Part shown: positions 17,492-64,000 of the stretch, piece after piece
Numbering within the stretch: position 1 is the stretch's first letter
Layout: every line of letters begins with the position of its first letter
Assembly (NCBI GenBank): GCA_965207895.1
Contig: CBDBNN010000001.1
Location: 182,312 to 246,311 of the forward strand
Source of the DNA: Dehalococcoidia bacterium
GTDB taxonomy: Bacteria > Chloroflexota > Dehalococcoidia > UBA6926
Direction: 5' to 3'
Length of the DNA: 64,000 nucleotides
Program-made: the position numbers and the translations under genes
The notes under the pieces: model-generated
Told to the model about the DNA's origin: nothing
The model's database searches: none
What the model saw: the letters and a program-made list of their open reading frames with translations, nothing else

Positions 17492-17623
17492 TTCACTTTT
17501 GCAGCCACAGCTTAAGGGGCGGCCTGTCACTCTAGCGCCTCAATCCCGCCGCCGCTCCGTTCAGGATGACAGTTTGCGGCGCACTTATGAGGGCGTATCA
17601 TTGAAAGGTCAGCAGCTTGGCGC

Positions 17624-17695
17624 GGCAACGTAGCTCAGCGGCAGAGCGGGCGCTTCATAAGCGCTAGGTCACAGGTTCGAATCCTGTCGTTGCCA
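17624..17695 (+). tRNA. tRNA-Met (anticodon CAT; elongator-type or possibly tRNA-Ile2)
   Basis: Cloverleaf by hand: acceptor GGCAACG/CGTTGCC, D-stem GCTC/GAGC, anticodon stem GGCGC/GCGCT with loop TTCATAA, T-arm ACAGG-TTCGAAT-CCTGT, and G1-C72. Confidence 0.8.
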
Positions 17696-17742
17696 CCGGC
17701 CGCATTCATAGAGCGGCGCGCGTGCCGGAGGGTGGCAAACGG

Positions 17743-17819
17743 GGGCGGTTAGCTCAGCTGGTTAGAGCGCTTCCTTCACACGGAAGAGGTCACAGGTTCG
17801 AGTCCTGTATCGCCCACCA
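17743..17819 (+). tRNA. tRNA-Val (anticodon CAC)
   Basis: Acceptor GGGCGGT/ATCGCCC, D-arm GCTC-AGCTGGTTA-GAGC, anticodon stem CTTCC/GGAAG with loop TTCACAC, T-arm ACAGG-TTCGAGT-CCTGT, and an encoded CCA. Confidence 0.85.
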
Positions 17820-37685: not shown

Positions 37686-40600
37686 CTAGTCGTCGTCTAT
37701 GATCGTCATGGTTCCCACGGCGTCGGGCGGGTAGAGGGTCCCGGGCAGGTACGCCTCCACCACGAAGTACTCGTCCGGCTCCTCATCGTCGTCGTACTCC
37801 AGCCACACCTCCGCCGTCAGCTCCGTCACCCCCGGCGCGAACACCAGCTCACCCTCCGTGTACTGATAGTCGGTCATGTGCGCCCGGTCGTCCAGCAGGT
37901 GGTACGCAGGCGCGGTGTTCCATCTGATCCTGATCTCCTCGGTGGACGCCTCGGACAGCCGCACCCGGAACTCCAGCACGTCGCCCTCCACCGCCGACGC
38001 GGCCTCGACGGTGACGGTTATCTCCACCTCCGGCGCAGCATCGTCGTTGTCGGCCACGCCGACCGTGGCCGCGCCCTGGGACGAGGACACCGTGTAGCCG
38101 CTGCCCGCGTTCACCGTGGCCGTCACCGACCCGTCGGTCTCGTCTGCGTCGTCGTCGGTGGTGCCAACGGTGAGGGTGACGCTGCCCGTGGTGGGGACGG
38201 TCACCGTGCGCTGGCCCGTGGTCGCGCCGTAGTCGCCGCTCTGGGACACCGTGACGCTCACCGCCAGGTTGGCCGCCGGGGCCGGGCTGGCGGTCACCGT
38301 GAAGATGGCGTCCCCGCCCTCGGTAACCCCGCTGCCCGCGGTGACGCTCACCACCGGCGTGGGGGCGTCGTCGTTGTCGGACACCGCCACCGTGGCCGCG
38401 CCCTGGGTCGAGGACACCGTGTAGCCGCTGCCGGCGTTCACCGTTGCCGTCACCGAGCCGTCGGTCTCGTCAGTAGTGTCGTCCGTGGTGCCGATGGTGA
38501 GGGTGACGCTGCCCGTGGTGGGTATCGTCACCGTCCGCTGGCCCGTGGTCGCGCCGTAGTCGCCGCTCTGCGATACCGTCACGCTCACCGCCAGGTTGGA
38601 CGCCGGGGCCGGGCTGGCCGTCACCGTGAAGGTGGCGTCCCCGCCCTCGGTCACCCCGCTGCCAGCGGTGACGCTCACCACCGGCGTGGGGGCGTCGTCG
38701 TTGTCGGCCACGCCGACCGTGGCCGCGCCCTGGGTCGAGGACACCGTGTAGCCGCTGCCCGCGTTCACCGTGGCCGTCACCGACCCGTCGGTCTCGTCTG
38801 CGTCGTCGTCGGTGGTGCCCACGGTGAGGGTGACGCTGCCCGTGGTGGGTATCGTCACCGTGCGCCGGCCCGTGGTCGCGCCGTAGTCGCCGCTCTGGGA
38901 CACCGTGACGCTCACGTCCAGGTTGGCCGTAGGGGCCGGGCTGGCCGTCACCGTGAAGGTGGCGTCGCCGCCCTCGGTGATGCCGCTGCCAGCAGTGACG
39001 CTTACCTCAGGCGTGGGGGCGGCGTCGTTGTCGGCCACGGCCACCGTGGCCGCGCCCTGGGACGAGGACACCGTGTAGCCGCTGCCCGCGTTCACCGTGG
39101 CCGTCACCGAGCCGTCGGTCTCGTCAGTAGTATCGTCCGTGGTGCCGACGGTGAGGGTGACGCTGCCCGTGGTGGGTATCGTCACCGTGCGCTTCCCCGT
39201 GGCCGCGCCGTAGTCGCCGCTCTGGGACACCGTGACGCTCACGTCCAGGTTGGACGCCGGGGCCGGGCTGGCCGTCACCGTGAAGGTGGCGTCGCCGCCC
39301 TCGGTGATGCCGCTGCCCGCAGTGACGCTTACCTCAGGCGTGGGCGGCGGCGGCGTCTGCGCTGCCGCCGCCTCCAGGGCCGTCAGCTCGGTCACCACCT
39401 CGTCCCACACCGGGCTGCTGTGCCGGTTCGCCATCTCCTGCGCCTCGGACGCCGTCATCGGGCCGCCCGTGACGCCGGCGCCGTCGTGCTCGCCGAAGGC
39501 CAGCAGCACCCGGTTCCAGCGGTTCACGTGGGCCGTGCCGTGCTGCGTCTGCGACGCCAGCTCCCTGACCTTCGCGATCACGTCCGGGTCCACCGTGTAG
39601 CCCGTCTGCTCCTCAACGACCGGGTCGTCGTTGTCTGCGACGCCGACCGTGGCAGCCCCCTGGGACGAGGACACCGTGTAGCCGCTGCCCGCGTTCACCG
39701 TCAGCGTCACCGAGCCGTCGGTCTCGTCCACGTCGTCGTCCGTGGTGGTTATGGTCACCGTGGCGCTGCCCGAAGTCGGGATGGTCACCGTGCGCTGGCC
39801 CGTGGTCGCGCCGTAGTCGCCGCTCTGCGAGACCGTGAGGCTCACCGCCAGGTTGGACGCCGGGGCCGGGCTGGCCGTCACCGTGAAGGTGACGTCGCCG
39901 CCCTCGGTGATGCCGCCGCCGCCGGTGACGCTCACCACCGGCGTGGAGGCGTCGTCGTTGTCGGACACGGCCACCGTGGCCGCGCCCTGGGACGAGGACA
40001 CCGTGTAGCCGCTGCCGGCGTTCACCGTGGCCGTCACCGAGCCGTCGGTTTCGTCAGTACTGTCGTCCGTGGTGCCCACGGTGATGGTGACGCTGCCCGT
40101 GGTGGGTATGGTCACCGTCCGCTGGCCCGTGGTCGCGCCGTAGTCGCCGCTCTGCGACACCGTGACGCTCACGTCGAGATTCGCGGTCGGGGCCGGGCTG
40201 GCCGTCACCGTGAAGACGGCGTCGCCGCCCTCGGTCACCCCGCTTCCAGCGGTGACGCTCACCTCGGGCGTGGGCGGCGGCGGCGTCTGTGCCGCCGCCG
40301 CTTCCAGGGCCGTCAGCTCGACGACCACCAGGTCCCACACCGGGCTGCTGTGATTGTCGGCCATGTCCTGCGCCTCGGCCGCCGTCATCGGGCCGCCGGT
40401 GACGCCGGTCCCGTCGTGCTCGCCGAAGGCCAGCAGCACCCGGTTCCAGCGGTTCACGTGGGCCGCGCCGTGCTGGGTCTGCGACGCCAGCTCCTTGACC
40501 CTGGCGATCGTTCCCTGGTTGACCGTGTAGCCGCCGTCGTCGTCGGACACGACCACGACGGCCGTCCCCTGGGACGAGGACACCCGGTAGTCGAGGTTGG

Positions 40601-43600
40601 CGCTGGCGTCGACGGTGACCGTGACCGATCCGTCGGGCTCGTCCACCTCGTCGTTGGTGGTGGCCACCGTCAGCGTGGCGTAGCCCGCTGCCGGGATGGT
40701 CACCGTCCGATGTTCCATGGATATCCCGGAGTCGTCGCTCTGCGACACCGTGACGCTCACGTCCAGGTCCGCAGCCGGGGCCGGGTTGGCGCTGACCGTG
40801 AAGGTCGCGTCCCCGCCCTCGGTCACGTTGCCGTCGGCGGTCACGCTGATCAGCGGCACGGACGTGTTGGGCGCGGGCGTCTCGAAGTCCACCGTGAAGG
40901 TCTTCGGCGTCGCGCCGGCGGCCAGGGTCCGCACGGTGATCTTGTCCAGCTGGGTCGTCCCATGAAGGACGGAGACCACGTAGTGCGACTGCGGATTAAG
41001 GCCGGTGAGCTGGTGCTCGGTGGCGGTGGTCGTGACTTCCGTCAGGACCGGGACGCCCGTGAAGCTCTCGTGCCAGACGACCAGGTAGGACGCGCCGTCC
41101 CCCTGCGGCTTCCAGGCGACGGTCGCCGTGGTGTCGGAGACGCGCTTGAGCTGCACCGGCGGAGGCGGCGGGAGGTCGTTGTTGGCGATATAGACCGAGG
41201 CGTAGCTCCTGAACCTGTTCAGCCGGTAGCCCTCGCCGAACTGCACCGTCGCGCCGAGCATCCCGTTGGAGCCCCAACCGGTGTCGTCGACGGTGGGGAT
41301 GGTGAACGAGACGCTGCCGCCGGTGGGCACGTTGACCGTGCGCTCGCCCAGGTGCTGGGCGGCGACCACGGAGCCGGGGCCGGCCACGCCCACCCTGACG
41401 TCCAGCGGCGCGTCGGGCGCGGGGTTCACGGTGACCGTGTAGACCGCGTCCTCGCCCTCGGTGATGGTGCCGCCGGCGGCGCTGATCGACACCTCGGGCA
41501 CCCGCTCCACGATCACCGACGTGGGCTCCGCCTCCACGGGCGAGCCCGCCGCAAGCGTGGTGAAGCGGATCACCGGGCTGGCGGTGCTCAGCTGCGTCGC
41601 GCCGTGGTCCTGGTAGTAGACCACCGCCCGGTACTCGGTGTCCGGCTCCAGGTGGCGGATGTTCCAGGCCGGGTCGTTGGGCTCGGCCCCGAACCAGGCC
41701 TCGTCGGCCGGGACGCCGGGGAAGGGCGAGGTGGTGGACCAGTAGCGCACCTCGTAGCCCTCGGCGCCGACCACCTGCGGCCAGCTCAGGTCGATGCCCG
41801 TGTCGGACAGGTTGGCGTAGGTCAAATCGCCCACGCGCTCCACCACCGGGTCGGGCAGGTCGCCCAGCAGCCGCTGGCAGCCCACGCAGGAGCCCAGCGT
41901 GCGGTGGAAGCTGAAGCTGTCGGTGCGCACCGTCTTCGGCGGCGTCTCCGTGGAGATCTGGTTGTCGCTGCGCTCGTACAGCTTGTAGCCCTCGACCTGG
42001 AAGGTCACGTTGCCGACCACGTTGGCGCCGACGTGGATGTCGACCTGGACCGGCGTGCGGCCGACCGTGACCGAGCCGGCGCTGACGGCAGAGTCAGTTC
42101 TGAAGGTGTGCAGGTGCGAGGCGGCGGGGCTGGTGAACCAGACCCGGTGGGACCGGAAGTACTCCGACGTGCCGCTCCGCAACAGCGGCTTGGCGAAGTC
42201 GGCGCTGATGGAGAAGCGCTTGTCCTGGTCCGCCGGCGGGTCGTTCTTCGTCCGCACCCAGAAGTAGTGCGCCTTGCGCCCCGTGTTCAGCGAGGCCGGG
42301 AAGGCCAGATTGAGCCCGCCGTCCTCGATGGACGTCCAGGTGGTCCCGTCGTCGATGGAGAACTCCAGGGTCTGCTCCCACTCGTCGTCGTCCCTGATGA
42401 TGAGCGGCACCTGCACCTCGGGGTAGTCGAAGCCTTCCACCTGGTACAGCACGCCATTTTCATAGAAGTTGTGGCCGACGGCGTGGGGCCGGTGGATCAG
42501 GAACGTCCCGTGGTCGAAGGCGTCGCTGTCCTGGCCCGCGGCGAGGCTCACCGGACGCCACTTGTTGGCGTCGCTCTCGTAGACGGACTGCGACGAGAAG
42601 GGGCAGCCGTCGTGCCGGTCCAGCAGCGGGCCGGCGGTGCTGCCGTAGCCGAAATGAATCCCATCCCGGCCAAGCCCTTCGACGATGGGGTCGCCCAGGT
42701 TGTAGGGGCTTCTACTCCCGGTGTGGCACATCAGCCGGTCCCGGTCCGGTTTGCCCGGCCCGATGTAGCCGCCGTGGTGGCTGAGCGGCTCACCCACCTG
42801 GCTGGCGACGTAGAAGTGCCGGCGCTCGTGGGGGTCCACCGCCTGCCACTGGTAGGTCACCGCCGGGCCGCCCTCCGTCAGCGTGATGGTGGGCGGCGGG
42901 TCGTGCCTGTTGTAGTTGGCGATCACCCAGCCCGTGTCGCAGTCGTTGCCCGAGATCGTGCCCGCGCAGGTGCGGAACTGCACGAAGGCGTCGGCGGCCC
43001 CCAGGTTCAGGCCGATCTTGAGCGCCTCGGAGTGGGTGCTCCAGGAGACGGCGGGGTTGGGGTAGAGCGACCAGGAACTGTGGCCGTCGCCGATGCTCCA
43101 GCCCTCGGGCAGGCGCAGGCCCCGCAGGCGCTCGGAGTTCGACGCGGTGGCGCGAAGGGTGTACGTGCTGTTGGGCTGCACGGACGCGTCGTATACATAC
43201 ACCCAGTAGGTGGTGTTCGGCTCCAGCCGCAGCCCCGAACCGTCGTTGCCCTGGTAGGTGAAGGTGAAGGTCCGGTCGGCGCTGCCCACCGGCATGGAGG
43301 GGCGCGCCAGATCGGCCAGGACGTCGGCGGCGGTACTGCCCGGCGAGCCGCCGGAGCCGGCCCAGATCTGTACCCTCAGATCACGGGCGGCGTCGGAGTC
43401 GCCGATCTCGGCAAACTCGACGTCGACGCTGTTGAGGCGGTAGTGGCCGCCGTTCTTGCCCGTCGTGAACGACTGCGCGCGGTCACGTACGGTACTGGCA
43501 GCCGTCACGGTCAACGCCGCGCCGTCCGCCTGGCCCAGGTTGCTCATCACCGCCGGCTCACCGGGCGGCGCGTTCACCGGCGTGGGCTCCACCCGGAACA

Positions 43601-46445
43601 GGGGCGAGATGCCGTAGAAGGCGTGGTCCTGGGTGCTGGCGATGGTGTTGTAGCTGATGGGGCCGGTGTCCGCGTCGGTGGTCGAGAACCGTCCGCGCCG
43701 GGCGTTGCTGGCGCCCAGAGGGTTCGCCTCCTTCGCACCGTCGGTGCGGGTGCCGGTCCACGGCCAGTCGTTCGAGGTGCTCCTCTCGCCGCTCTCGAAG
43801 CGCCGGTCCGCCATCGCCCAGTTCTCCCAGGTGTCGGACCAGAAGCCGGCGTTGTTCGCCGCGACCCGCTCGCCGTTCAGCCACCAGACCTCCGCGTCCG
43901 TGTGCCCGGCGTTGTTGGGGTTGGTCCGGGTGTGGTCCCGGGCGTCCACCGCGGCGGTGGAGCCCACCACCCGGAAGTGATCGGCGTAGCGCCGGACGGC
44001 GGCGTGCCCGTCGCGGGCCGCCTCCCGCACGTGGGCGTCGTAGACGCCGATGTCGGCGGCGGTGGCGTCGCGGTGGTCTTCGGTCATGAACAGCAGCCGG
44101 AACGTCTCGCCCGCGCCCAGACCGAGCGGCTTCAGCGGCCAGTCCAGGGGCACGGTGTAGGAACCGTCCGCGTGGGGCAGCAGCCGGCCGTTGACTCCCA
44201 TCGACAGAGTGGAGCCGCCGACCAGGGTGATCCAGTTGCCGCCCCCCTGCGCGCGGATGCGAGCGTCGTTGTTGATGCTCCAGCCGGGCGCGGCGCCCTC
44301 GTCCTCGGAGTTGCTCTGCGTGAACTTCACCTGGCTGTTGCCTTCCGTGAGTCCGGCTGCGTCCAGCACGACCCAGTAGCGGGTGTCCGCCTCGAGCGCG
44401 ACGCCCGGGTGCGTGAAGCGGTACGTGCCGGCCTGCCGGTTCACGAAGGCGGGATTGGTCAGGGTCCCCACGACCGTGCCGGGAGCCCCGTTGGCACCTT
44501 TGTGGACGGTGACCGTCAGCTTGGAGCCGAAGTCCTCGGTGGACCGCCTGAAGGCCACGTCCACGCTGGTCAGGGTGTACCCCGAGGGGTTGCCGCCGGT
44601 GTCGAAACCCTGCGCCAGGTCCACGTGCAGGCCCTGCACCAGGCCGCTCGACTGGCCGGTGTTCTTCACCAGCGCCGGGTCGTCGTCCCGCACCCGGACC
44701 GTCGCCGTCCCCAGCGACGTGGCCAGGTCGTAGTCCGACCCGTCCACCAGCGTCACCGTGACCGAGCCGTGGGCTTCGTCCACGTCGTCGTTGGTGGTGG
44801 CGATCTCCAGCGTCGCCGACCCGCTGGCCGGAATGGTGACGCTGGTGGGCAGGGTCCCGTACCCGAAGTCCCCGGTCGTGGTCACCGTGACGCTCACCGG
44901 CAGGTCTGCCGGGGGCGCCGGGACCGCCGTCAGCGTGAAGCTGGCGCTGACGCCCTCGGTGACGGCGCCGCCGCCAAGGATGCTCACCCGCGACGGCCGC
45001 AGCTTGTTGCTCACCTGCACGGAGAAGCCGTTGGACGTCGCGTGCGGGTCCGCGCCGCCGCCGACATTGGTGCCGAGGCTGGAGGCGTCGAAGGCGGCGT
45101 TCGAGCCGAGCGCGATGGTGTAGGTCTCCGTGCTCTCCGTCGCGCCGTCGACCACCGGCGTCAGCTCCAGCGTCGCCGTCCGCGCGCCCGCGCCCGAGAA
45201 GCGCACCGTCGGCGTCGCCGTGCTCGTGCCCGAAAGCGTCACGCCGGCGTTGAGGCTCGTGCCGGTCTTCTTCGCAAGGCTCCAGTCGGAGGTGGTCACG
45301 CCCGTGCCGCCGATCGACAGCGGCACGTCGATGGTCTCGCCCGCAATCAGCGCGCGGCCCAAGGTCACCGTGAACTCCACCGTCCCGCCCTCCGACACCG
45401 CGCCGCTGCCGACGCGGGCGAGGGTGACGACCGTGGGGTCGTCGTCGTGGAGGGTGTAGGTGAAGCTATTGGCGCTGGTGTCGATGGAAACCCCGGCGGG
45501 GAGCGGATTGTCCGGATCCTCAGAGAGAGTCACCGAGATGACTTCGTTGGGCACGTCCCCGACACTGCCGACAGCAAAGCCACTAATGCCCCTCTCCGTG
45601 CTACCTGCTGAGACTGTTAGATCTGCGCAACCGTTTTCATCCAGTGTCAAAACTGTGTTTTGCAAATGCTCAAACTCGAGGCCAAGGGTTGGGCGGTTGC
45701 TTGTGATACATACTCTGAAGTAGGTAGCAGTTGCCAGGGCCGATGAGACTTCCACCCGAAAACTTCCAGCAGCTGCACCTGCACTTAATTCTTGTGTCAT
45801 CTGCGGGGTAGATAGTTCTACAGACATTGTTGCGGTCTTCACCACGCCACCGAGGCTGATTTTCGGGGTTGGCGTGTTGGTGAACCATGAGCCTGTCATA
45901 GCATGCGCTCTATACACCAAGCCGTTACCGATGCTCCAGCCGGCGAGGGCTCCGCTATCTTCGTTGTTCGAATTCGTGGCGCGAATACCCGACGTGGCGA
46001 GGTTACGGCTGAGATCCAACACAAGGAAGTATGTGGTGTTCGCCGACAGGTCTATGCCGGTGCTCGTGAAGGTCAGCGTCTGGTCCGAGCTGGAGACGGG
46101 AAAGCTGGCGGGCTTGGTCAGGGTCCCCAGCGAGCTGCCCGGAGACCCGCTGGATTCGGTGTGGATGGTGGCGGTGAGGTCCGAAGAGCTGAAGCTGCTG
46201 TGGATAATGCCAAATTCCACTCCGACGCTGGTCAGGCTGTAGCCCGCGGCGTTGCTGCCGGTGGTGAACGCCACGGCGTAATCGTTGCCAAGAGCTTGAT
46301 TGAATCCGTCTGCCTGACCGAGGTTGCTGACGAAGGTCTGCGTCGCCTGCTGCGCAGAGGCTGTTTCAGACCCTCCAGACAGCAGCACGAACAGCGCCGC
46401 CGCCAGCAGGGTCAACGTGAGGAAGGTTCTGGCGGGGCGCCTCAT
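37686..46445 (-). CDS. Giant secreted adhesin-like protein (2919 aa): signal peptide, three SNLGQxDG-type domains, FN3 domains and about 8 Calx-beta-like domains
   Basis: The ATG at 46445 gives MRRPARTFLTLTLLAAALFVLLSGGSETASA. FN3-like segments (YEVRYWS..., VAWKPQGDGASYLVVW...). Repeated about 109-aa units TEGGDATFTVTASPAPxxNLxVSVTVSQSGDYGA...TDDxxDETDGSVTATV. The C-terminal domain DYQYTEGELVFAPGVTELTAEVWLEYDDDEEPDEYFVVEAYL is a Calx-beta hallmark. Confidence 0.85.
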   Translation of the reverse strand: MRRPARTFLTLTLLAAALFVLLSGGSETASAQQATQTFVSNLGQADGFNQALGNDYAVAFTTGSNAAGYSLTSVGVEFGIIHSSFSSSDLTATIHTESSGSPGSSLGTLTKPASFPVSSSDQTLTFTSTGIDLSANTTYFLVLDLSRNLATSGIRATNSNNEDSGALAGWSIGNGLVYRAHAMTGSWFTNTPTPKISLGGVVKTATMSVELSTPQMTQELSAGAAAGSFRVEVSSALATATYFRVCITSNRPTLGLEFEHLQNTVLTLDENGCADLTVSAGSTERGISGFAVGSVGDVPNEVISVTLSEDPDNPLPAGVSIDTSANSFTYTLHDDDPTVVTLARVGSGAVSEGGTVEFTVTLGRALIAGETIDVPLSIGGTGVTTSDWSLAKKTGTSLNAGVTLSGTSTATPTVRFSGAGARTATLELTPVVDGATESTETYTIALGSNAAFDASSLGTNVGGGADPHATSNGFSVQVSNKLRPSRVSILGGGAVTEGVSASFTLTAVPAPPADLPVSVTVTTTGDFGYGTLPTSVTIPASGSATLEIATTNDDVDEAHGSVTVTLVDGSDYDLATSLGTATVRVRDDDPALVKNTGQSSGLVQGLHVDLAQGFDTGGNPSGYTLTSVDVAFRRSTEDFGSKLTVTVHKGANGAPGTVVGTLTNPAFVNRQAGTYRFTHPGVALEADTRYWVVLDAAGLTEGNSQVKFTQSNSEDEGAAPGWSINNDARIRAQGGGNWITLVGGSTLSMGVNGRLLPHADGSYTVPLDWPLKPLGLGAGETFRLLFMTEDHRDATAADIGVYDAHVREAARDGHAAVRRYADHFRVVGSTAAVDARDHTRTNPNNAGHTDAEVWWLNGERVAANNAGFWSDTWENWAMADRRFESGERSTSNDWPWTGTRTDGAKEANPLGASNARRGRFSTTDADTGPISYNTIASTQDHAFYGISPLFRVEPTPVNAPPGEPAVMSNLGQADGAALTVTAASTVRDRAQSFTTGKNGGHYRLNSVDVEFAEIGDSDAARDLRVQIWAGSGGSPGSTAADVLADLARPSMPVGSADRTFTFTYQGNDGSGLRLEPNTTYWVYVYDASVQPNSTYTLRATASNSERLRGLRLPEGWSIGDGHSSWSLYPNPAVSWSTHSEALKIGLNLGAADAFVQFRTCAGTISGNDCDTGWVIANYNRHDPPPTITLTEGGPAVTYQWQAVDPHERRHFYVASQVGEPLSHHGGYIGPGKPDRDRLMCHTGSRSPYNLGDPIVEGLGRDGIHFGYGSTAGPLLDRHDGCPFSSQSVYESDANKWRPVSLAAGQDSDAFDHGTFLIHRPHAVGHNFYENGVLYQVEGFDYPEVQVPLIIRDDDEWEQTLEFSIDDGTTWTSIEDGGLNLAFPASLNTGRKAHYFWVRTKNDPPADQDKRFSISADFAKPLLRSGTSEYFRSHRVWFTSPAASHLHTFRTDSAVSAGSVTVGRTPVQVDIHVGANVVGNVTFQVEGYKLYERSDNQISTETPPKTVRTDSFSFHRTLGSCVGCQRLLGDLPDPVVERVGDLTYANLSDTGIDLSWPQVVGAEGYEVRYWSTTSPFPGVPADEAWFGAEPNDPAWNIRHLEPDTEYRAVVYYQDHGATQLSTASPVIRFTTLAAGSPVEAEPTSVIVERVPEVSISAAGGTITEGEDAVYTVTVNPAPDAPLDVRVGVAGPGSVVAAQHLGERTVNVPTGGSVSFTIPTVDDTGWGSNGMLGATVQFGEGYRLNRFRSYASVYIANNDLPPPPPVQLKRVSDTTATVAWKPQGDGASYLVVWHESFTGVPVLTEVTTTATEHQLTGLNPQSHYVVSVLHGTTQLDKITVRTLAAGATPKTFTVDFETPAPNTSVPLISVTADGNVTEGGDATFTVSANPAPAADLDVSVTVSQSDDSGISMEHRTVTIPAAGYATLTVATTNDEVDEPDGSVTVTVDASANLDYRVSSSQGTAVVVVSDDDGGYTVNQGTIARVKELASQTQHGAAHVNRWNRVLLAFGEHDGTGVTGGPMTAAEAQDMADNHSSPVWDLVVVELTALEAAAAQTPPPPTPEVSVTAGSGVTEGGDAVFTVTASPAPTANLDVSVTVSQSGDYGATTGQRTVTIPTTGSVTITVGTTDDSTDETDGSVTATVNAGSGYTVSSSQGAATVAVSDNDDASTPVVSVTGGGGITEGGDVTFTVTASPAPASNLAVSLTVSQSGDYGATTGQRTVTIPTSGSATVTITTTDDDVDETDGSVTLTVNAGSGYTVSSSQGAATVGVADNDDPVVEEQTGYTVDPDVIAKVRELASQTQHGTAHVNRWNRVLLAFGEHDGAGVTGGPMTASEAQEMANRHSSPVWDEVVTELTALEAAAAQTPPPPTPEVSVTAGSGITEGGDATFTVTASPAPASNLDVSVTVSQSGDYGAATGKRTVTIPTTGSVTLTVGTTDDTTDETDGSVTATVNAGSGYTVSSSQGAATVAVADNDAAPTPEVSVTAGSGITEGGDATFTVTASPAPTANLDVSVTVSQSGDYGATTGRRTVTIPTTGSVTLTVGTTDDDADETDGSVTATVNAGSGYTVSSTQGAATVGVADNDDAPTPVVSVTAGSGVTEGGDATFTVTASPAPASNLAVSVTVSQSGDYGATTGQRTVTIPTTGSVTLTIGTTDDTTDETDGSVTATVNAGSGYTVSSTQGAATVAVSDNDDAPTPVVSVTAGSGVTEGGDAIFTVTASPAPAANLAVSVTVSQSGDYGATTGQRTVTVPTTGSVTLTVGTTDDDADETDGSVTATVNAGSGYTVSSSQGAATVGVADNDDAAPEVEITVTVEAASAVEGDVLEFRVRLSEASTEEIRIRWNTAPAYHLLDDRAHMTDYQYTEGELVFAPGVTELTAEVWLEYDDDEEPDEYFVVEAYLPGTLYPPDAVGTMTIIDDD
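38040..40850. repeat. Near-identical tandem coding repeats (about 327-bp unit x6-7) plus a duplicated about 260-bp insert inside the adhesin gene
   Basis: Protein-level repeats are more than 90% identical. The second repeat family (GYTVxPDVIAKVRELASQTQHG.AHVNRWNRVLLAFGEHDG...AAAAQTPPPP) occurs at about 39345-39614 and 40269-40523. Confidence 0.7.
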
Positions 46446-46468
46446 GAGAGAGAACCCCCACGAAATGC

Positions 46469-46478
46469 GGGGGGGGGG
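46469..46478. repeat. Homopolymeric G10 (C10 on the coding strand) 24-33 nt upstream of the adhesin start codon
   Basis: Sequence ...atgcGGGGGGGGGGtgaagc. On the minus strand this reads CCCCCCCCCC-gcatttcgt-GGGGG-ttctctctc-ATG. Confidence 0.6.
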
Positions 46479-46748
46479 TGAAGCTCCGCAGCGCATCAGT
46501 CATGTCGTCGAACCTCCTGTGTCGCCCGACTTATGCCGCGACGCCGTGCGGGCGCTGGATCAGTAGTATTTCTAGCTCATGTCAATATGTGTCGCAAACG
46601 ACCAGCAGATATCATCCGCCAATCTGGGGTTCGTTGTCAATGGGGTCCGGGTTGGATTGGGGACGGAAAGGGAGGGCGGAGCGCAGCAACATACCGTGTG
46701 GGGACTGGCGGACAAGGGCGACTTGGCGAGACCCCTCGGAGGCAGTCG

Positions 46749-47693: not shown

Positions 47694-48617
47694 ATGACTG
47701 CTCTTGTCCGTCAGTTCAGATTCTTCCTAAGAGATGAAGTCAACCCAAATATTGACAGGGTGCGCAGGCTGCGCTCAGGCATTAGAGGAGTTAGAGATCA
47801 CCTGCACAGAAATCTTGATGGTTTTCAAGGTATCGCTCGACAGGGCTCATTGGGCTTGGACACTTTAATCAAGCCCGTCCGGGAAGATGACGAGTACGAC
47901 GCTGATGTTCAAGTCGTCATGAACCCACAGGCCAATTGGAATCCGAGGCAATACTTGGATGCTGTATTTGAAACACTGTCGACGAGCCTAGACTATCAAG
48001 ACAAACTGGAATGCAACACACGGAGCGTGACCATCAAGTTTGCCGGGCACTTCAGTATGGATGTCGTTCCGCGTATCACCCAAGATGGCCAGCACCAAGT
48101 CTGCAATCGCAGAGATAACAGATTTGAATCAACCGATGGTATGGGCTATCACAACTGGTTCCACGAGAAGAGCAAGTTGACCAACGTCAACCTCAAGCGT
48201 GCCGTCCGGCTGTTAAAGTACATCCGCGATCGTGAGAGCAATTACAAAGCTCCGTCCATATTGCTTACAACCTTGGCGGCAAACGCCATACAGTCTGGTG
48301 ATCGTGGCAGAGACTCTGTAAAGTCAGTCGCAAGCACATTGACCACGATCCTTACAAGGATGGACAGCTATTTGCAGGGGCTCCCACGAAAACCCGCCGT
48401 CAGGAATCCTGTACTACGCTCCGAGACGTTCGACCGCCATTGGAATGATGTCCAGTTTGCGATATACAGGGAGAACATTCACCGATATGCCGAGATTGCT
48501 ACAGGAGCCTTTGCCAGTTCTTCTGTCCCGGAATCAATTGATCGTTGGAGGAGGCTCTTCGGCGAAGGTTTTGGAGGGCATTACAAGGCACCGCCTCATA
48601 GTAAGCAAAGGGTTTAA
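47694..48617 (+). CDS. SMODS / CD-NTase-like nucleotidyltransferase
   Basis: AGGAGGG RBS. Carries the nucleotidyltransferase-fold motifs QGSLGLDT (GS) ... DDEYDADVQVV (h[DE]h) ... FSMDVVP (third acidic). 307 aa with a SMODS-like C-terminal helical region (RLLKYIRD..PSILLTTL). Confidence 0.6.
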   Translation: MTALVRQFRFFLRDEVNPNIDRVRRLRSGIRGVRDHLHRNLDGFQGIARQGSLGLDTLIKPVREDDEYDADVQVVMNPQANWNPRQYLDAVFETLSTSLDYQDKLECNTRSVTIKFAGHFSMDVVPRITQDGQHQVCNRRDNRFESTDGMGYHNWFHEKSKLTNVNLKRAVRLLKYIRDRESNYKAPSILLTTLAANAIQSGDRGRDSVKSVASTLTTILTRMDSYLQGLPRKPAVRNPVLRSETFDRHWNDVQFAIYRENIHRYAEIATGAFASSSVPESIDRWRRLFGEGFGGHYKAPPHSKQRV

Positions 48618-48660: not shown

Positions 48661-49575
48661 TCACCAATGCCGTCGCCGACGAAGGCGTGCGGCTGAGTAC
48701 GAAAGTCTGATGGAACCAATAGCGAAACGGCTGCGGCGGGCACGCAGCACTGGGGACGGGAGATCTCCGTAATTCCGCAGAAAACGCGCTAGCGGCTCTG
48801 AGACTACGCTGCTGAACACAACGCCGACCATGACAGCAAGCACCACAGACCAATCGTCGCCACCCGGAATTGCCCGGGGTACCCATATAGCAAGAACCAT
48901 CATCGGAGAGAACAGGAACAGCATTCCAAAACTCTCCATAAGCGGGCCGAGTGTAGGATGCTTAGGCCATATTTCAACGCCTTTGAACAGCACCCACACC
49001 AATAAAGTCCATGACGCGAGCAGGGCGGACACGGCAGTCAACGGAATGAGGGTGTAATGCAACTCCCATCCGCCCATGAGCCCTGGAAGAACCCAATACA
49101 TCATCAACAGGATTCCCGCCGGCACCATGCCGATTGCCAATATCCTCTTACTTCGTATTAGTATCCAAAATATGAACAACCATGGAGCGGACACTATAAT
49201 CACGACTATGTTGATCCCCAACTCATGGAAGTCGTACGTGTTGCTAATCGCCAAGAGCGTGAAGAGTCCCAGGAAAAAGGCGATTCCAGCTTGCCACGGA
49301 TCCACTTGCCACCAATTGAGCGGTGGGACTCCATCTTCTTGCTGCATCGCCTGGTAGAACGCCACGAAAGGAAGAACCGCAAGAAGAAGATTCATCACAA
49401 CGCTGTCATACATCCTGTCTACGTAGTCAAACCCCCAAATGAAGTAGGTCGCTATCGCCAGACTAAGTAACGCAATCAGGAAGTTGACTGTGACTCCCTT
49501 ACGGAGGTCCTTCAATGGGTAATGGCGGGCTTTTGAGCTCACGTCTCGAGCACGACGCATCAGGGATCGCATCAA
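48661..49575 (-). CDS. Polytopic membrane protein (about 8 TM), hypothetical
   Basis: 304 aa and highly hydrophobic. Convergent with the NTase gene across a 44-nt gap. Confidence 0.55.
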   Translation of the reverse strand: MMRSLMRRARDVSSKARHYPLKDLRKGVTVNFLIALLSLAIATYFIWGFDYVDRMYDSVVMNLLLAVLPFVAFYQAMQQEDGVPPLNWWQVDPWQAGIAFFLGLFTLLAISNTYDFHELGINIVVIIVSAPWLFIFWILIRSKRILAIGMVPAGILLMMYWVLPGLMGGWELHYTLIPLTAVSALLASWTLLVWVLFKGVEIWPKHPTLGPLMESFGMLFLFSPMMVLAIWVPRAIPGGDDWSVVLAVMVGVVFSSVVSEPLARFLRNYGDLPSPVLRARRSRFAIGSIRLSYSAARLRRRRHW

Positions 49576-55073: not shown

Positions 55074-56214
55074 TTACCCAGCTACCTTGGCACAAACTGC
55101 GTAGACGGTGAGGGTCCAGTTGCCAGAGACCGCGTTCACCTCAGTGGCGCTTGCGACCCATCCTGTAGGAACGCCACCAAGCTGTCCCGCCGGGCGGGAT
55201 TCAGTTACGGCTACGCCCCCGTCAGAGGACTCCACCAGCGCGCCACCGGAGATTGCAGAGAAGCCTGTGCCAACCGAAGAGCACAGTACGGTTTCGGACT
55301 TACTGGCGTCACTGTTCGATGAGCTTTGCGATCGCGCGATTCGAAGGTCGGATACTCCGGGCTCGCCTTGCTCACCCTGCGGACCATGCGGTCCTGCTGC
55401 TCCTGTTGCTCCCGTCGCACCGCGTTGTCCTGCCTCACCTTGCGGGCCTCGTTGTCCTTCCGCCCCTTGGGGTCCTATAGGTCCTGCTTGCCCTTGAGGC
55501 CCTTCGGGTCCCGTTTGGCCTTGATCGCCCTGCAGACCTCGTGGTCCTTCGGGTCCGGTTGGGCCTGTCGGCCCTTGCGGGCCTTCCGGTCCTGTAGCTC
55601 CGGCTGGTCCGACCAATCCTTGTGGGCCCCTATCACCCTGGATGCCTTGTGGGCCTTGTGGGCCTGCCTCACCCTGTGCGCCACGAGGTCCGAGAGGTCC
55701 CTGAGAACCTGCTGGTCCCGGGTCTCCCTTCGGACCTTCAGGCCCGCCTGCAGGTCCCATAGGTCCTACCTGGCCCTGTGGTCCTGGAACGCCCTGAGGT
55801 CCTTGCACGCCTTGCGGCCCAGCGGGTCCTACCCCGCCTTGAGGTCCTTGCACGCCCTGCGGTCCTGTCTCACCCTGGGGTCCTTCGGGTCCTGTCGCAC
55901 CAGTGTCGCCCTGCGGACCTGGAGGACCACCGGGATCCCCCTGAGGTCCTTGAGGTCCTGTCGCTCCTGCGGGTCCTGCCGGTCCTGCCGCACCCTGGGG
56001 TCCTGCCGGTCCGGGGTCGCCTTGCGGTCCTGCCACGCCCTGCGGTCCTGCCGCTCCTGCCGGTCCTGCCGCTCCTTGAGCCCCTTCAGCACCTTCGCAT
56101 GCAGCGGCTGCAAGGATCATGACTATCGCTAGGGCCGAGATAGCCGCGATCAACACCCACTTCCGCACGGGCTCAATCGATTTCACATACTTAGACAAGG
56201 CTGGCATCGTCATT
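55074..56214 (-). CDS. Collagen-like triple-helix repeat protein with N-terminal TM anchor and C-terminal globular domain
   Basis: The ATG at 56214 follows GAAAGGA. TM segment [20 protein letters not shown], then about 80 uninterrupted GXY triplets ([16 protein letters not shown]...), then a roughly 100-aa Ser/Thr-rich tail. Confidence 0.8.
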
Positions 56215-56587
56215 CCTTTCACCTCACCCCAACGCTCTGTTTCAATCCTCAAGCGAAATACCATGAATGTCAAGAACCTTGCTCGACTATCTATGCCTTC
56301 GCAATGAAGGAGTCGGACTCACGCGGCGCGCGGGCTCACAGCCTTCTTGAGTCGCATCGCATTTTTGACAGCGTGCCCTGCTTGCCGGAGGCGCTCTCAC
56401 TCAGAATACCAGCAATCTCACTTCCTTGACACCCCTATCGACACCCCTATCCGACTCCTGCTCTCTGCGTTTTTTCATCCAAATCGAACCAGCAAAGGAA
56501 CCAGGAAACCGATCATTGCCCTGAACCTGTCCCTCCCCCCGTACACCGAGCCCGGACGTGGACTTCACATAGAAGTGCCCTGCGTCG

Positions 56588-57727: not shown

Positions 57728-58020
57728 GACGGAATACCCCTCTCTCCGATGACGAGGCAATTATGGATTCAGGCTTGGTGGAAATTCAAGAAGGCGATTC
57801 CGTATCTCAACAGGATGGCGGTTTCCAGGGACCAGCGGTGCCCTACAGAATCAAGAAAATCATCGTCCGCTCCAAATAGCACGTATCCTTTCTCAAAGTA
57901 AGCGGGGAGGATGAGCCCTGTGGCAACGCCGCCTGAGTCATTCAGTAAACGCCATCGGGCACAAAGGCAGCGAGGACTCTAGTGCATTTGTCGCCGACGA
58001 AGCTGCGCATATTACGCAGC

Positions 58021-61000
58021 ATGGGGCTGCTGCTCTTGCTGGCAGCATCCATCGCCGGTTTCATGATGCTCATCGACTTGCTCGCGGATACAACGCCGCA
58101 GGACGCGCCTGATCTTCTCGCAGAGGCCGACTCCGAGGCGGATGTCATCAGCCTGCCCAATTCTGCCTCCCTGTTCGCCATCGGCCTTGCAACGATGGCA
58201 ATTATTGTCTCTCTGGCAGTTGTGGCAGCGCCCTCGAATTGGCGCCGCTCAGAGAACGGATTGCCCCGTCCACGTTGGATCTCATTGGGCATCGCCGCGA
58301 TTATTGCTCTCATCATCGCGGCGGCCGGATTGTTTCTGGCTTTCGCAGATGCATCACCTCTTTTCCAGGAGCAGACTGGCGCGGGCGAAGTAACCAGCAG
58401 CCATGAGGTCAACACCAACTGGGTCGCGCCGGCCGGCGTCGCCTTGCTGGCTGCCTTCTTCTTTACCGTCATCCTGATTGGTTTCCTCAGGCCGCGACTC
58501 GTTTTGCCGGTTCTCGCAATCTGGCTGGCCGCAAGCCTCTTCTTTGGATTCTTTAGTTCCAGCGCAATCGCGGGTCTGAGCCTGTTTGATCCCCTGGTCA
58601 GCATCAAAGTGCCGGGTGCCTTCGCCGAAGAGGTTGCCGGGCATCGGACGGTGGCGATTCAACCGGGTTCCGAAGGCGATGGTATACCAGGGCCAGGCGA
58701 CGCCTCGTCTGACCCTAACGATATTCCCGGCAATGGCGTTCTGGAAGATTCTGCTGCAAACGGCGTTAGTGGACTTGATGATGTTGGTCAGGCCGCCCCG
58801 GGAGAAATCTCGGAAGAGGCGGTTATTGCGAGGCTGGAAGGCGCGGGGGACCCCGCTGACCGCGCGAACGCCGCACAAAAACTGGCCGAATTTCGCTCCG
58901 ATGACGCGTTGCGATCTCTTGCACACGCTGGGCTATATGACCCGTCCCAGCTCGTACGCGACAAGGCAATCGACGCCATTACGGAATGGGACTTTGAGAC
59001 GCTTGTCGAGATATTGCAGGAGCACCCGGAGTCTAATGTCCGGCGCGCCGCAGCAGCAGCCCTTGGACGACTGAATGACAGTCGCGCCGTCGAACCGCTC
59101 GCCACAGCCCTGCTAACGGATGAGGCCGCAGAGGTTCGGCAGGAATCCGCCAAAGCCCTCCGCAAGCTCCGCGACCCGGAAGCCGTGAGCCCCCTCATCC
59201 AGGCCCTCTTGCGAGACGAAAATCCATCCGTCAGAACCGAGGCGGCGACTGCGCTCGGCGCGCTGGAAGATGAACGTGCGGTACAGGCTCTCCTCGAAAC
59301 ATTGCAGGGCGATACATCCGCGCTCGCGCGGGAGGCGGGCGCCGAAGCGCTGGGGCGCCTTCGCGGCTCTAACCCGCTAGCCGAACTCGACACTGCACGG
59401 GTGGATGACTTCTCGGCGGGCGTGCGCGAGGAGGCCGCACTGGCCCTCCAACGCTACACGATCCCTGAATTGATAGACGCGCTGCATAACGCGTCGGCTG
59501 CTGACGACCGCGCAGTCGCCGCGAGGCTGCTCGGCGAGAGAAGAACTCCCACAGCGATACCGGAACTCATCCTCGCCCTCAGTGACCCTGAGGGAATCGT
59601 CCGCGAGGCGGCGGCTGGGGCGCTGGGCAATTTCGGCAATATGCAGATGCTGGAGAACGGCAGCTCCGTCCTATCACACGGTGGCAACGAGTACATCATT
59701 CCGGGAACAACAACCAGGCAATCATCCGGTCTCCCTCACGTGCCCATGTTCAGATTCACAAACCAGGCCCACCTGGATTTCCTTCGTACAGCCGTCGGCG
59801 ATGTTTATAGTGGCGATGGCTGGCTGGACAGTAATATTCAAGCACTTCCCTATGAGGCCCATGAACCCATTGAGGAGATCGACGCGTCGGGCAGCCCTCT
59901 CACCTGGGTCTCATCCATGCCGGAAAATACCGTGTACTACCACCCACCGGCCGGCAAGATCTACCTTCCCCGCGGCATTTTCCCGATCGGCTATGTCACG
60001 CGTACTGCAGACGTGGACGGCATATATCGTCCCGGCAGCTCAACCTTCCTCATGCGGGAAAGGCAAAGTTATGTCACAGCCAACGTGACGCCAGCGGTCT
60101 ATGACGACTCAGTTCTGCAGTCTGCCGTTGCGGAGCAGAGCTTGAGCGTTACGTTTCCGGATTCCGTCCCCGATCGCGTTCACGATCTGGCCGCCCGCAT
60201 CACCGCAGGCCACACATCGGCATACGCCAAAGCCAAGGCAATTGAGCAATACCTGGCGACCACCTATGAGTATCGGCTGGCAGACGAGGATACCGTTCCC
60301 ATTCCAAGGGGGCACGATCCCGTTGACTGGTTCCTGTTTGAGAGTCGTGAGGGAACGTGCGGTCAATTCAGCAGCGCCTTTGTTGTGCTCGCACAGTCAA
60401 TCGGCCTCCCTGCTCGCGTGGTTTCCGGCTTCGCGATTACTCCTACCTCAGATGAACAGCTCGTCTTTGCCGACCAGGCGCACCAGCGGGCTGAAATCGC
60501 ATTTGATGGGCTTGGATGGGTTGCTTTCGAACCGACACCGGCTGAGGAGGGCGCGCCAGGCCGCGCTTCCGGTTACTTTGCATCAGGAGAATCGTCTCCA
60601 CGCTCCGCACAAGCGGAGCTTCAGCGTTTGGCGGAACAACTGTCCAGCGACAATCCCGCCGACGTACAGGACGCTCAACGCGCCATTGAGGAACTAGGCG
60701 GGAGTGTCGAGACTCTAGAGAATGGGAGCATTCTCGTAGAGGGTGAAGGTGGCGCCCAGGGCACAGCCCCAAGCACGACGGCAGATCAAGCGTATGACTT
60801 ACCCCAGTCCGCAGTGTTCACGGTTACTGGAGCGCAAGAAACCGGATACCTGGTGACGACAACCGGCGACATCTATACCGGCGACGGATGGCGTCGATTA
60901 GACCCGGTGATCGTCGACTATACCAGATCCGAATCCGTTCCCGAGCTGGTTCGCGATTCAATTGAAGAAGGCCGGGAACCGTGGGGCGATCTGCCGGAAT

Positions 61001-63990
61001 CTCGAATGGAACCGATTCTCCTGGCCCCGGGCGAAAAAGACTTCGATAACGGCGCAAGCATAAGGCTGCGTGTTGCCCCAATTGACGATTCCGGCAGAAT
61101 CCCCGCCGGAGTGGTGCCGGTTTCCCGCCACGTCAACAGCGTGGGGCTTGACGGGTCATACCGGCCCTTCAGCGGCACCTTTGAGATGGATGAGCCGGTG
61201 CTGGGCTACGAATGGTGGTCGATACTCCCGCGCCCGAGTGAGAGAGACCTCAACAGGGCTGGGATTATCGAAGACCCAACATACACCCAGTTGCCGGATG
61301 ACCTTGATGAACGCATACATGATCTCGCCCGACGCATTACGTCAGGGTACGGGACGCCATACGCCAAGGCCCGCGCCATCGAGAGTTACCTCCGCAGCAA
61401 CTACAAGTACGTACTGGGTAAAGACTCAAACAAGCCTCGGCGCCCGGCAGGGTTTGAGGCAGTAGAGTGGTTCCTCTTTGAGACAAGGGAAGGAACGTGC
61501 GGTCAATTCAGCAGCGCGTTCACCGTCCTGGCACGGTCGGCAGGGCTGGCGGCACGGGTCGTGTCCGGCTGGATGATTACACCTACCCCCAATACACAGA
61601 CGGTCTACTCCGATCAGGGTCATCAATGGGCTGAAGTCGCTTTTGAAGGCATTGGCTGGATTACGTTTGAGGCGACCGCATCAGGTGGAGCGCCAACACG
61701 TGTCAGATCCGATGGGCCACCTGATCGGCCGTTGTCGTCCGGCGGGAGTGGCGGGTCCGGCGGGAGTGGCGGGTCCGGCGGGAGCGGCGGGTCCGGTGGG
61801 AGTGGCGGGTCCGGTGGGAGCGGCGGGTCCGGCGGGAGTGGCAGGAGTGGCCCCACGATCCTGGACACCGTTACTGACATCACGTCTTGGCCCCGGGAAA
61901 TCGAGCGTGGCAGACCATTCATCGTCGGTGGCACCGTGCGAACTGATGGCGGGGCCCCCGTTAGCGACATGGAAATAGAGATCTTTGTCAACGAGATCAA
62001 GGCCCAAGGAGGACTCCGTATTGGCACAGGAATGGTACGGAACGGTCGGTACACGGTTGAAGTTGAGATGCCGCCGTCCCTGGAGCGTGGCAATTACCAG
62101 CTCATTGCACACGCAATTGAGAACGAAAACTACTACGAATCGTGGAGCGACCCGGACATCGCCGTCTTCTCAAAGAGTGGCCTCATATTTTCCGGTCCTC
62201 AGCAGGTAAACGTCGGGACGGAGGCTGTTTTCAATGGCCAGGTAACGGAGGATAACGGGAGGGGCGTGCCGGGCATACCGGTGTCCGTCATCATCGATGG
62301 CCGCTCGTTCGCCCAGCGCACCACGGTAGAGGACGGCGGTTTCAGTTTCTCCAACACGTTCCTCCTGCCGGGCGAGCATTGGGCCGAGGTACGATTCCCC
62401 AATACGAATTTCCTCCGCGCCAACTCAGCCCGTCTGCACCTGGATGTGTTCATGCCCACCACGCTCACATTGGACGCGCCCGCGCAGGCGAGGGTGGATG
62501 AGCCGTTCACCATCTCTGGCAGTTTGGTTGACTGGCAGGAAACGCCACTAAACGGCAGCCAGGTAACGATTAACGTCGGCGAAAGTGGCAGCGCCACGGT
62601 CGTCGCAGGCGTTGACGGGTCATTCACGCATCAGGTCACCCTGCCCTCCTCAGGGCAGGTCGCCGTGACCGCAGCCTACGAAGGGACCGAGTCAGTGCTG
62701 CCCTCATCAGCATCGGCCAGCGTCATCGCGCGGGATGTGACCGTTCTGTCATTCGAAGGGCCGGGACAGGTCCTGTCCGGTGAGACGGCAGTCTTCCACG
62801 GCGCAGTCACATCTCCCACGAATGAGGAGCTTGAACCACTGACTGTTGAGATCGTCTTCGGCGGCGAGATCATAGCATCCATCGGGACGGGAGAGGACGG
62901 GGCGTTCTCCTACGACACCGGCAGGCTTGAGGAGACCGGCCAGCGAATGCTGACCGCGCGGGTGCCGGAACAGCGGTTCCTGACATCGAGCGCCACCACT
63001 ATCTCCTATTCCGTCGTGCACCCCACCGTCATCACCCTCGACGGTCCGTCAGTAGCTATGACCGGACAACACATCGAGTTCATCGGCACCCTCAGGCAGG
63101 TCGATGGCCAGTCGATTGCCAGTTCGTCGGTAGTCCTGGACGGCAACCCTGTAATCACCGCAGATGACGGCACATTCAACCATGTTGTCACGCTGCCTGA
63201 AATGCTGGACGGTGATGCCGTTGAAGAGCATATCCACATCGAATACGCGTTCGATGGGACGGACCATCTCGCAGCGGCGTCCGGCAGCCGATTAATCATC
63301 GTTGGCGTGCCGCGTCTCACAACTGAGCGCACTGCTCCAATCGCGCGCGGTGACGTTGCACTACTTCGCGGCGCGGCATTCACGGGAACGCGTCCGCTTC
63401 CCGGCGCAGCCATTTCCCTCACCGGCAGACAGTCCCATGAGACCGATCCGGCCGGCCAATTCCTGTTTGAATATCAGGTTTCTCCGGATACGCCGGTTGG
63501 TCCACTACGCTTGATTGCCTCGCTTGATGATCTGGGGGTTCAGGCTCCCATTGAACTGGATATACGCTCTGCAGTGCACTTGGTCGCAACGCCACTCGAT
63601 GACGTGCGGCCGGGCCACATCATAGGGATGCAGGTCGCTCTGTACGATGACACCGGCGCGGGTATCAGCGGCGCAAACGTCCAGACAAGCACCGGACTAA
63701 ATCTCTTCACCGATGAAATCGGCCATGCCATGTTTGAACTAACCGTGCCGGAGTCCGAAGCGCTACTCGCCGTCCCCATCACATTCACATTCAGCGGCGA
63801 TACCCAACACATGCCGCTCAATTACTTCCTTGGTATCCCCGTTAGTCCACCGCCCTTCAACTGGCTTTTGTGGGTCGTCTTCCCCGCGTTCCTGCTCCTT
63901 ATGGGCGCCGGCGGTTACGGGGCATATCGGCTGCGCGCCGCCGGTGTCCCGCTTGACCCGCGGGCTTGGTCTGCGGGCGTAATCCAAGTG
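58021..63990 (+). CDS. Giant membrane protein (>1990 aa, 3' truncated by window): N-terminal TM helices, PBS-lyase-type HEAT repeats, two transglutaminase-like domains, (GGS)n linker, Ig-like repeats, C-terminal TM
   Basis: Continuous open frame from 57949 to the window end, checked by hand. HEAT repeats (NVRRAAAAALGRLNDSRAVEPL...VRQESAKALRKL...PSVRTEAATALGAL). TGase cores (EGTCGQFSSAFVVLAQSIGLPARVVSG...HQRAEI and EGTCGQFSSAFTVLARSAGLAARVVSG...HQWAEV). An alternative start is the GTG at 57982 after GAGGA. Confidence 0.75.
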
Positions 63991-64000
63991 CCTGAAAGGC

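Follow-up and report, generated by a model that had tools for sequence, protein, structure and literature searches.

A giant gene at the end of the window

We have analyzed a 64,000 nt stretch of DNA from an uncultured Dehalococcoidia bacterium (assembly GCA_965207895.1, contig CBDBNN010000001.1, positions 182,312 to 246,311), which will be called the window. Its right end is occupied by most of a giant gene on the plus strand, coding for a membrane protein with two transglutaminase (TGase) modules, HEAT repeats and Ig-like domains. The original prediction, made from the sequence alone, had proposed a frame of more than 1990 amino acids open from 57949 to the end of the window. This is correct: direct translation gives 2017 in-frame codons (57949–63999) with zero stops, and none is found in the region 58021–63990, where one would have closed the frame. 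An in-frame TAA (57946–57948, plus strand) directly precedes the long frame. With the base composition of this segment, the probability of a stop is 0.031 per codon, so one stop is expected every 32 codons or so, and 2017 codons free of stops would appear by chance with a probability of about 1e-28.

This 6.5-kb gene is invisible in the list of open reading frames (ORFs) because it runs off the window, as had been suggested: the program skips ORFs which leave the source sequence. In 58021–63990 it only shows short overlapping ORFs on both strands. The original prediction counted five of these spurious ORFs, a number which depends on the threshold used: about 20 have at least 80 amino acids, and 7 have at least 150.

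The start is probably the GTG at 57982 and not the ATG at 58021 where the original prediction had placed it. We prefer the GTG because it has a GAGGA sequence 5 nt upstream and because the closest homologues (P0001–P0003) begin with MHLSPTR at the matching codon; these homologues have Ile at the position of the ATG. Residue numbers are counted from this GTG, unless ATG numbering is stated. There are 27 homologues with the same architecture, with identities of 39–76% and lengths mostly between 2,145 and 2,212 amino acids. According to these lengths, the window should contain about 92% of the gene, and the full protein should have about 2,190 residues. A wider search detects 164 relatives among GTDB species representatives; we have examined the best 80, almost all of them from Dehalococcoidia.

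The gene is therefore real and conserved, although lineage-specific and unannotated, and its product would be an inner-membrane protein. It is practically out of the question that the frame could be non-coding and open by accident, or that it could be a pseudogene or the product of a chimeric assembly. Such an artefact might be suspected when a gene is cut by the window, and when the GC content of the window is heterogeneous. However, besides the chance probability given above, the GC content is uniform (0.60) along the gene, the catalytic residues are conserved, and in dozens of independent assemblies, some of them complete chromosomes, the homologues can be aligned collinearly from one end to the other. 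This alignment of homologues refutes the artefact.

Domain organization and membrane topology

The features of the giant protein are shown in Table 1, together with other features of the window. Pfam detects Transglut_core in two stretches (E 2e-50, 170 bits for a cutoff of 23), as well as HEAT_2 (4e-39), HEAT_PBS (3e-17), CarboxypepD_reg and Big_3_5. Such a domain search had been proposed. Its results, together with hydropathy, agree with most of the architecture originally described: a membrane anchor of four to five helices (we find five N-terminal hydrophobic helices), HEAT repeats of the PBS-lyase type, two Cys-His cores separated by 1.1 kb (the cysteines, 780 and 1160 in ATG numbering, are 1,140 nt apart) and a series of Ig-like beta domains, about seven. 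Two details must be corrected. The Gly-Ser linker is present, but it is (GGS)11 instead of (GGS)7. The helix described as terminal exists (1945–1968 in ATG numbering), but it is not terminal: the homologues extend about 190 residues beyond it, with a CarboxypepD_reg-like domain followed by DUF4129.

The loops between the helices are alternately rich in Lys/Arg and acidic, which fits the positive-inside rule. The predicted topology has the N-terminus inside, a loop of about 1,750 residues outside and the C-terminus inside. The exposed region would be very acidic, with a net charge of -125. The protein is also poor in Lys (0.8%), which could be thought to protect a cross-linking enzyme from itself; we have rejected this idea, as other proteins in the window which are likely to be exported or in the membrane are equally poor in Lys. 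Nor do the HEAT repeats point to a phycobilin lyase of the CpcE/NblB type: the best score is 64.7 bits, for an equivalog cutoff of 330. On these scores, what the array shares with PBS-lyases is the type of repeat, not membership in the lyase family.

The (GGS)11 linker corresponds to a short DNA tandem repeat. It is absent or different in the homologues, so its length probably varies through slippage.

Table 1. Features of the giant gene, followed by other features of the window
Feature	Position	Strand	Comments
Shine-Dalgarno-like GAGGA	57972–57976	+	5 nt 5' of GTG 57982; read from the sequence
Giant TgpA-like protein, coding region, 3' end outside the window	57982–64000	+	2006 residues present from GTG; about 180–190 missing, by comparison with homologues
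Predicted five-helix N-terminal membrane bundle	58021–58587	+	residues 14–202; hydropathy, loop charges
Acidic low-complexity linker	58597–58836	+	poorly conserved, 47% mean pairwise identity
HEAT / PBS-lyase-type alpha-solenoid	58849–59646	+	about 8 repeats, residues ~290–555; Pfam; predicted extracytoplasmic
TGase module 1: LENGS hairpin, beta-rich N-subdomain, Transglut_core	59650–60560	+	residues 557–860; mosaic module
Module 1 triad: Cys793, His834, Glu850	60358–60360, 60481–60483, 60529–60531	+
Helical linker joining modules 1 and 2	60561–60714	+
TGase module 2	60715–61695	+	residues 912–1238; best PDB match is the TgpA periplasmic domain
Module 2 triad: Cys1173, His1214, Glu1230	61498–61500, 61621–61623, 61669–61671	+
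(GGS)11 flexible linker	61741–61839	+	9/18-bp tandem repeat
DNA tandem repeat behind (GGS)11	61737–61851		18-bp unit, 5.9 copies, 93% matches
Stalk of Ig-like beta-sandwich domains	61867–63846	+	about 7; CarboxypepD_reg, Big_3_5, Big_1-like; residues 1296–1955
Predicted sixth transmembrane helix	63853–63924	+	residues 1958–1981, then YRLRAAG (positive, inside); hydropathy
Predicted cytoplasmic tail, start	63925–64000	+	homologues continue into CarboxypepD_reg-like domain and DUF4129
Collagen triple-helix repeat protein	55074–56273	-	E 5e-37; N-terminal transmembrane/signal segment; two genes upstream of the giant gene
SMODS/DncV-like nucleotidyltransferase	47694–48617	+	E 6e-24
Protein with several transmembrane helices, without family	48661–49575	-	304 aa
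Second giant ORF	37686–46496	-	2,936 aa, 69% GC
tRNA-Met, tRNA-Val	17624–17819

The transglutaminase modules and TgpA

Each of the two modules has a Cys-His-Glu triad. Cys793 and Cys1173 are the sole cysteines in 1,993 residues, and both are found in a GTCGQF motif. Modules 1 and 2 are 40% identical over 328 residues (E 8e-70), so the whole unit has been duplicated in tandem, not only the catalytic core. In the aligned family, His and Glu are invariant in both cores, and Cys is at least 90% conserved. Cousins of 2,600–2,830 amino acids have three or four modules, the first of them with Ser in the place of Cys. Catalysis is plausible, with a non-canonical triad.

The only solved structure with a significant sequence match is PDB 6G49, the periplasmic domain of TgpA from P. 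aeruginosa (phmmer E 7e-10). The AlphaFold model of module 2 gives the same result: 6G49 is in first place (E 4.9e-11, TM-score 0.59 normalised to the target), with 317 aligned columns, so the likeness appears to extend past the core into the N-subdomain. TgpA begins with five transmembrane (TM) helices, followed by a periplasmic domain (residues 180–544) and a sixth helix, and it ends in the cytoplasm; this topology is supported by a PhoA fusion and by experiments of trypsin shaving (PMC3507681). It is an essential protein, and its periplasmic domain has transglutaminase activity in vitro (PMC3507681). Given the match to 6G49 in sequence and fold and the membrane layout of TgpA, each of our modules should correspond to one TgpA periplasmic domain, and both proteins would share an overall plan, in which a big TGase region outside the cytoplasm is held between five N-terminal TM helices and a sixth one, with a tail in the cytoplasm (PA2873; structures 6G49 and 6G4H).

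The likeness includes DUF4129 (PF13559) at the C-terminus, which we have detected in the homologue P0001 (E 0.004) and, above the cutoff of 24.8 bits, in P0022 (26.3 bits), P0197 (25.7) and P0207 (28.7). The window's own gene presumably also has it, past the end of the window. We should also mention a weak match to the periplasmic part of PF11992, in P0022 only. A search with a TgpA fragment gave fragments of up to 238 amino acids which show the combination PF11992-PF01841-PF13559.

There are also clear differences. The giant protein is about 3.3 times longer than TgpA (about 2,190 and 668 amino acids), its periplasmic module is tandemly duplicated (three or four copies in the cousins), and HEAT repeats, a GGS hinge and about seven Ig-like domains have been added. 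The acid residue in the triad is Glu instead of Asp, and no similarity to TgpA_N can be detected in the N-terminal bundle. For this last reason we call the protein TgpA-like and not a strict member of the TgpA family. Going by its sequence, it is an enlarged, duplicated relative of TgpA, a variant of the TgpA/MoxR/DUF58 kind. The original comparison with very large protease, TGase or adhesion factors was broadly right, although imprecise: the specific relative is of the TgpA type.

Other transglutaminases are more distant. The soluble and eukaryotic enzymes (factor XIII, TG2, TG3) and the bacterial cysteine proteases with a TGase fold (3ISR and 3KD4) also have a papain-like core, and the motifs which contain Cys and His are shared. 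These matches are weak and do not go beyond the core (Foldseek E values between 1e-5 and 1e-2, TM-score up to 0.3); the giant protein has neither calcium sites nor beta-barrel domains, and its context is that of a membrane-anchored protein in an operon.

Both cores might be hydrolases, that is, cysteine proteases or deamidases of the transglutaminase-like clan, which with the same topology would cleave or trim envelope or secreted proteins. We consider this possible but doubtful. The second-best structural matches of the module 2 model, 3ISR and 3KD4, are described as "putative cysteine proteases", relatives of TgpA are named "transglutaminase-like putative cysteine protease" in source annotations, and an equivalent protein (TGM) in the PFNA cluster of bifidobacteria is considered "presumably a cysteine protease" (PMC8430577). 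Hydrolysis would also be feasible with a Cys-His-Glu triad. Nevertheless, the closest characterised relative is the TgpA periplasmic domain, which is active as a transglutaminase in vitro (PMC3507681), and the sequence does not discriminate between the two chemistries.

Conservation and exchange of module 1

Conservation is very uneven along the protein. The mean pairwise identity in the family is highest in the DUF4129 tail (77%), followed by the sixth TM helix (73%) and the TGase cores (69–70%); it falls to 38–47% in the linkers and to 40% in the N-subdomain of module 1. As the most conserved segment is DUF4129, this is consistent with a conserved cytoplasmic interaction.

A different case is that of module 1 in homologues P0010 and P0019, which are 97% identical outside module 1 and 44% identical inside it. 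The tract of low identity covers approximately residues 520–895 (59545–60670 in the window), and identity recovers gradually at both ends. Among homologues P0010, P0011, P0016, P0018 and P0019, the types of module 1 disagree with the grouping of the remaining protein. This pattern indicates a replacement of module 1 as a cassette, by recombination between lineages.

Genes downstream of the giant gene

In P. aeruginosa, the gene of TgpA shares its transcript with PA2875 and PA2874, located upstream of it, which we take to be a MoxR-type ATPase and a DUF58 protein. The giant TGase has similar partners, in a different arrangement. We have surveyed by tblastn 74 loci from GTDB species representatives, nearly all of them metagenome-assembled genomes (MAGs) of Dehalococcoidia. 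In about 70 of the 74 loci, all four partners are found downstream of the giant gene, in the order giant TGase, X900, MoxR, DUF58, Y258. With respect to TgpA, the TGase comes first and there are two extra orphan membrane proteins. The MoxR partners are 75–99% identical across loci. The original prediction could not detect the partnership of TgpA, MoxR and DUF58 because the partner genes lie past the end of the window.

In locus L001, X900 is a polytopic membrane protein of about 899 amino acids (16462–19161), MoxR is an AAA_3 ATPase (E 1e-62), the DUF58 protein has two N-terminal TM helices, and Y258 is a membrane protein of 258 amino acids (21481–22257). The partner of about 900 amino acids has at least 12 TM helices, and its C-terminal region, on the cytoplasmic side, gives a weak hint of SH3; that of about 250 amino acids has 5–6 TM helices. 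Neither of them belongs to any Pfam or NCBIfam family. The relatives of the larger one are just 27, all unannotated and within the family.

The cassette appears to be near-universal and single-copy in its clade. The same order is found in L003, L004 and L005, where the giant protein is 40–59% identical, with quite different genes upstream. In these loci, as in L001, MoxR and DUF58 are neighbours on one strand. Downstream of the cassette, several relatives are syntenic (YjbQ and SQS_PSY in L001 and L004); the upstream genes vary. In L005, the gene after the cassette (22583 onward) is annotated with a product of 12,219 residues: another giant gene.

Two loci differ, one from Bathyarchaeota and one from Chloroflexota. 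The Bathyarchaeota locus keeps MoxR and DUF58 and has unmatched genes of 433 and 246 amino acids at the positions of X900 and Y258; its counterpart of the giant protein, of 1,243 amino acids, has two TGase cores and Ig-like domains, without HEAT. The Chloroflexota locus keeps X900, MoxR and DUF58, with an ORF of 221 amino acids at the position of Y258, and a PD40 beta-propeller replaces HEAT. The accessory module varies, with HEAT in the window protein, a PD40 beta-propeller in L079 and none in L078.

We expect the MoxR/DUF58 cassette to be present in the source genome beyond the end of the window, because the genes upstream of the giant gene are syntenic with L001: an ERG4/ERG24-like reductase, a collagen-repeat protein, a PfkB kinase, a methyltransferase and an AMP-binding/PP-binding/reductase enzyme. 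We have considered whether the collagen-like neighbour could be a conserved substrate of the TGase, and discarded it: G-X-Y genes are found in 11 of the 80 sequences examined, which with one or two exceptions belong to close relatives with synteny.

A MoxR gene beside DUF58 is what defines the MRP subfamily of MoxR ATPases (PMC8430577, PMC12067865). The bifidobacterial PFNA cluster is a MoxR-DUF58-transglutaminase system with FN3 surface domains; for MoxR-DUF58 clusters, including PFNA, a mechanism has not been established in the literature (PMC8430577, PMC12067865). In PFNA (pkb2-fn3-aaa_atp-duf58-tgm), as in our case, a MoxR AAA_3 ATPase adjoins DUF58 and a membrane TGase-like protein, and the surface domains are beta-sandwiches (FN3 or Ig-like). 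In PFNA, however, FN3 is on a separate protein and there is a Ser/Thr kinase; in the Dehalococcoidia family the TGase itself carries the Ig-like domains, and the cassette lacks a kinase and has two lineage-specific polytopic membrane proteins. The mycobacterial moxR1 operon shares MoxR-DUF58, and TGase is missing there. The association of MoxR, DUF58 and TGase is thus widespread, and the Dehalococcoidia family is an extreme form of it, with up to four catalytic modules joined in one protein to Ig-like spacers and to a HEAT or beta-propeller domain, which would bind the substrate, plus two conserved membrane proteins.

In PMC12067865, which cites Kaur et al. 2020, ternary MoxR-vWA systems are presented as proposed conflict systems. 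The cassette could be of this type and serve in conflict or defence, with external domains which would sense a phage or a competitor and an ATPase setting the threshold of the response. The cassette-like replacement of module 1 is typical of arms-race loci, and some relatives have restriction-modification, toxin-antitoxin or transposase genes upstream. We think that this is very unlikely: a near-universal single-copy cassette with syntenic downstream genes does not suggest it, PADLOC only finds generic HEAT matches in the five cassette proteins, and no effector domain (nuclease or pore) is recognised in them.

The main role of the protein could also be that of an adhesin on the surface of a sponge symbiont, or of a factor for interaction with the host. 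Its HEAT and Ig-like domains would then bind molecules of the host or of a matrix, and the TGase folds would bind without catalysis. Many related MAGs appear to come from host-associated samples, judging from isolate names. The exposed region is large, very acidic and rich in repeats, the accessory module is variable, module 1 is a mosaic and the larger cousins carry extra modules with Ser instead of Cys. On the other hand, practically all members keep Cys and His in both cores, the window protein has no other cysteines, and a passive adhesin would leave the link to a MoxR ATPase cassette unexplained. We consider that this role is unlikely.

Proposed function

The best explanation of these results as a whole, which we consider fairly probable, is that the giant TGase acts as an extracytoplasmic thiol acyl-transferase on envelope proteins, coupled by its tail to MoxR and DUF58. 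The two cores would react with Gln side chains of extracellular or envelope proteins to give thiol acyl-enzyme intermediates, and the acyl groups would be passed to amines, producing cross-links; this is the activity which the periplasmic domain of TgpA shows in vitro. The choice of substrate might depend on the HEAT repeats and on the N-subdomain of module 1, which evolves rapidly. The Ig-like stalk and the GGS hinge would provide reach. The DUF4129 tail may be the handle by which cytoplasmic MoxR/DUF58 assembles or gates the external enzyme. A nearly frozen tail and ATPase, fixed catalytic residues and a single swapped external module would be the features of an enzyme coupled from inside to outside, with diversifying pressure acting on its external specificity. 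This idea could be tested in all systems of the class.

Several observations weigh against this explanation. The coupling to MoxR/DUF58 is deduced from gene order alone, with partners outside the window. The topology comes only from hydropathy and the positive-inside rule; it places HEAT repeats outside the cytoplasm, which is unusual, and one Ig-like domain in the cytoplasm. The third residue of the triad, Glu850 or Glu1230, aligns with the Asp of TgpA and canonical TGases, and the nucleophile has been lost in core 1 of P0003 (Cys to Gly) and in core 2 of P0017 (Cys to Ser). The TGase fold also serves for proteolysis and deamidation, which the sequence does not distinguish from cross-linking. 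The structural models are modest: for module 2, the mean predicted local distance difference test (pLDDT) score is 61, with 70–92 in the core and low values in the N-subdomain. The AlphaFold2 model of the bundle (helices 5–36, 61–82, 99–132, 150–169 and 171–190) has a mean pLDDT of 48, a low confidence which is too poor for fold comparison.

The bundle also lacks a Pfam match to TgpA_N (PF11992/DUF3488): with E values up to 10 allowed, nothing meaningful appears, and the best match to the bundle, in one of ten members, has E 2.7. When a profile of the bundle was compared with 1.84 billion cluster representatives, only 94 proteins were retrieved. TgpA_N is not found in the nine most distant sizeable matches of these 94, which we have scanned; they carry the HEAT, TGase, Ig-like and DUF4129 domains of the giant TGase family.

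A more ambitious proposal is that the cassette forms a membrane-spanning machine controlled by ATP, in which the two extracellular TGase heads would be activated from the cytoplasm by DUF58 and a hexamer of MoxR, by way of the DUF4129 tail and both orphan polytopic proteins. With module 1 as a swappable specificity module, it would be a programmable cross-linker, used to build or remodel the proteinaceous envelope of Dehalococcoidia or their attachment to a host matrix. We regard this as rather unlikely. If true, it would provide a first functional logic for the MoxR-DUF58-TGase association, including the essential TgpA.

Other features of the window

Rfam and tRNA scans give no RNA genes or structured elements near the giant gene; the only matches are those at 17.6–17.8 kb, tRNA-Met and tRNA-Val. 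Just past these tRNAs the GC content rises from about 0.59 to 0.64–0.73, and it falls back near 46 kb. The segment between 18000 and 46000 is possibly a tRNA-flanked island or a compositionally distinct segment.

The second giant ORF has fn3 and Calx-beta-like repeats, with many near-identical units of about 100 amino acids. Its product is very acidic and poor in Lys, and is probably a secreted adhesin. The ORF of 2,753 amino acids found opposite to it is almost certainly its shadow.

The SMODS/DncV-like nucleotidyltransferase adjoins a 304 amino acid protein with several TM helices, and both genes are in a patch of low GC (50–53%). This pair looks like a cyclase of the CBASS type (cyclic oligonucleotide-based antiphage signalling system) and a membrane effector, on an acquired segment.

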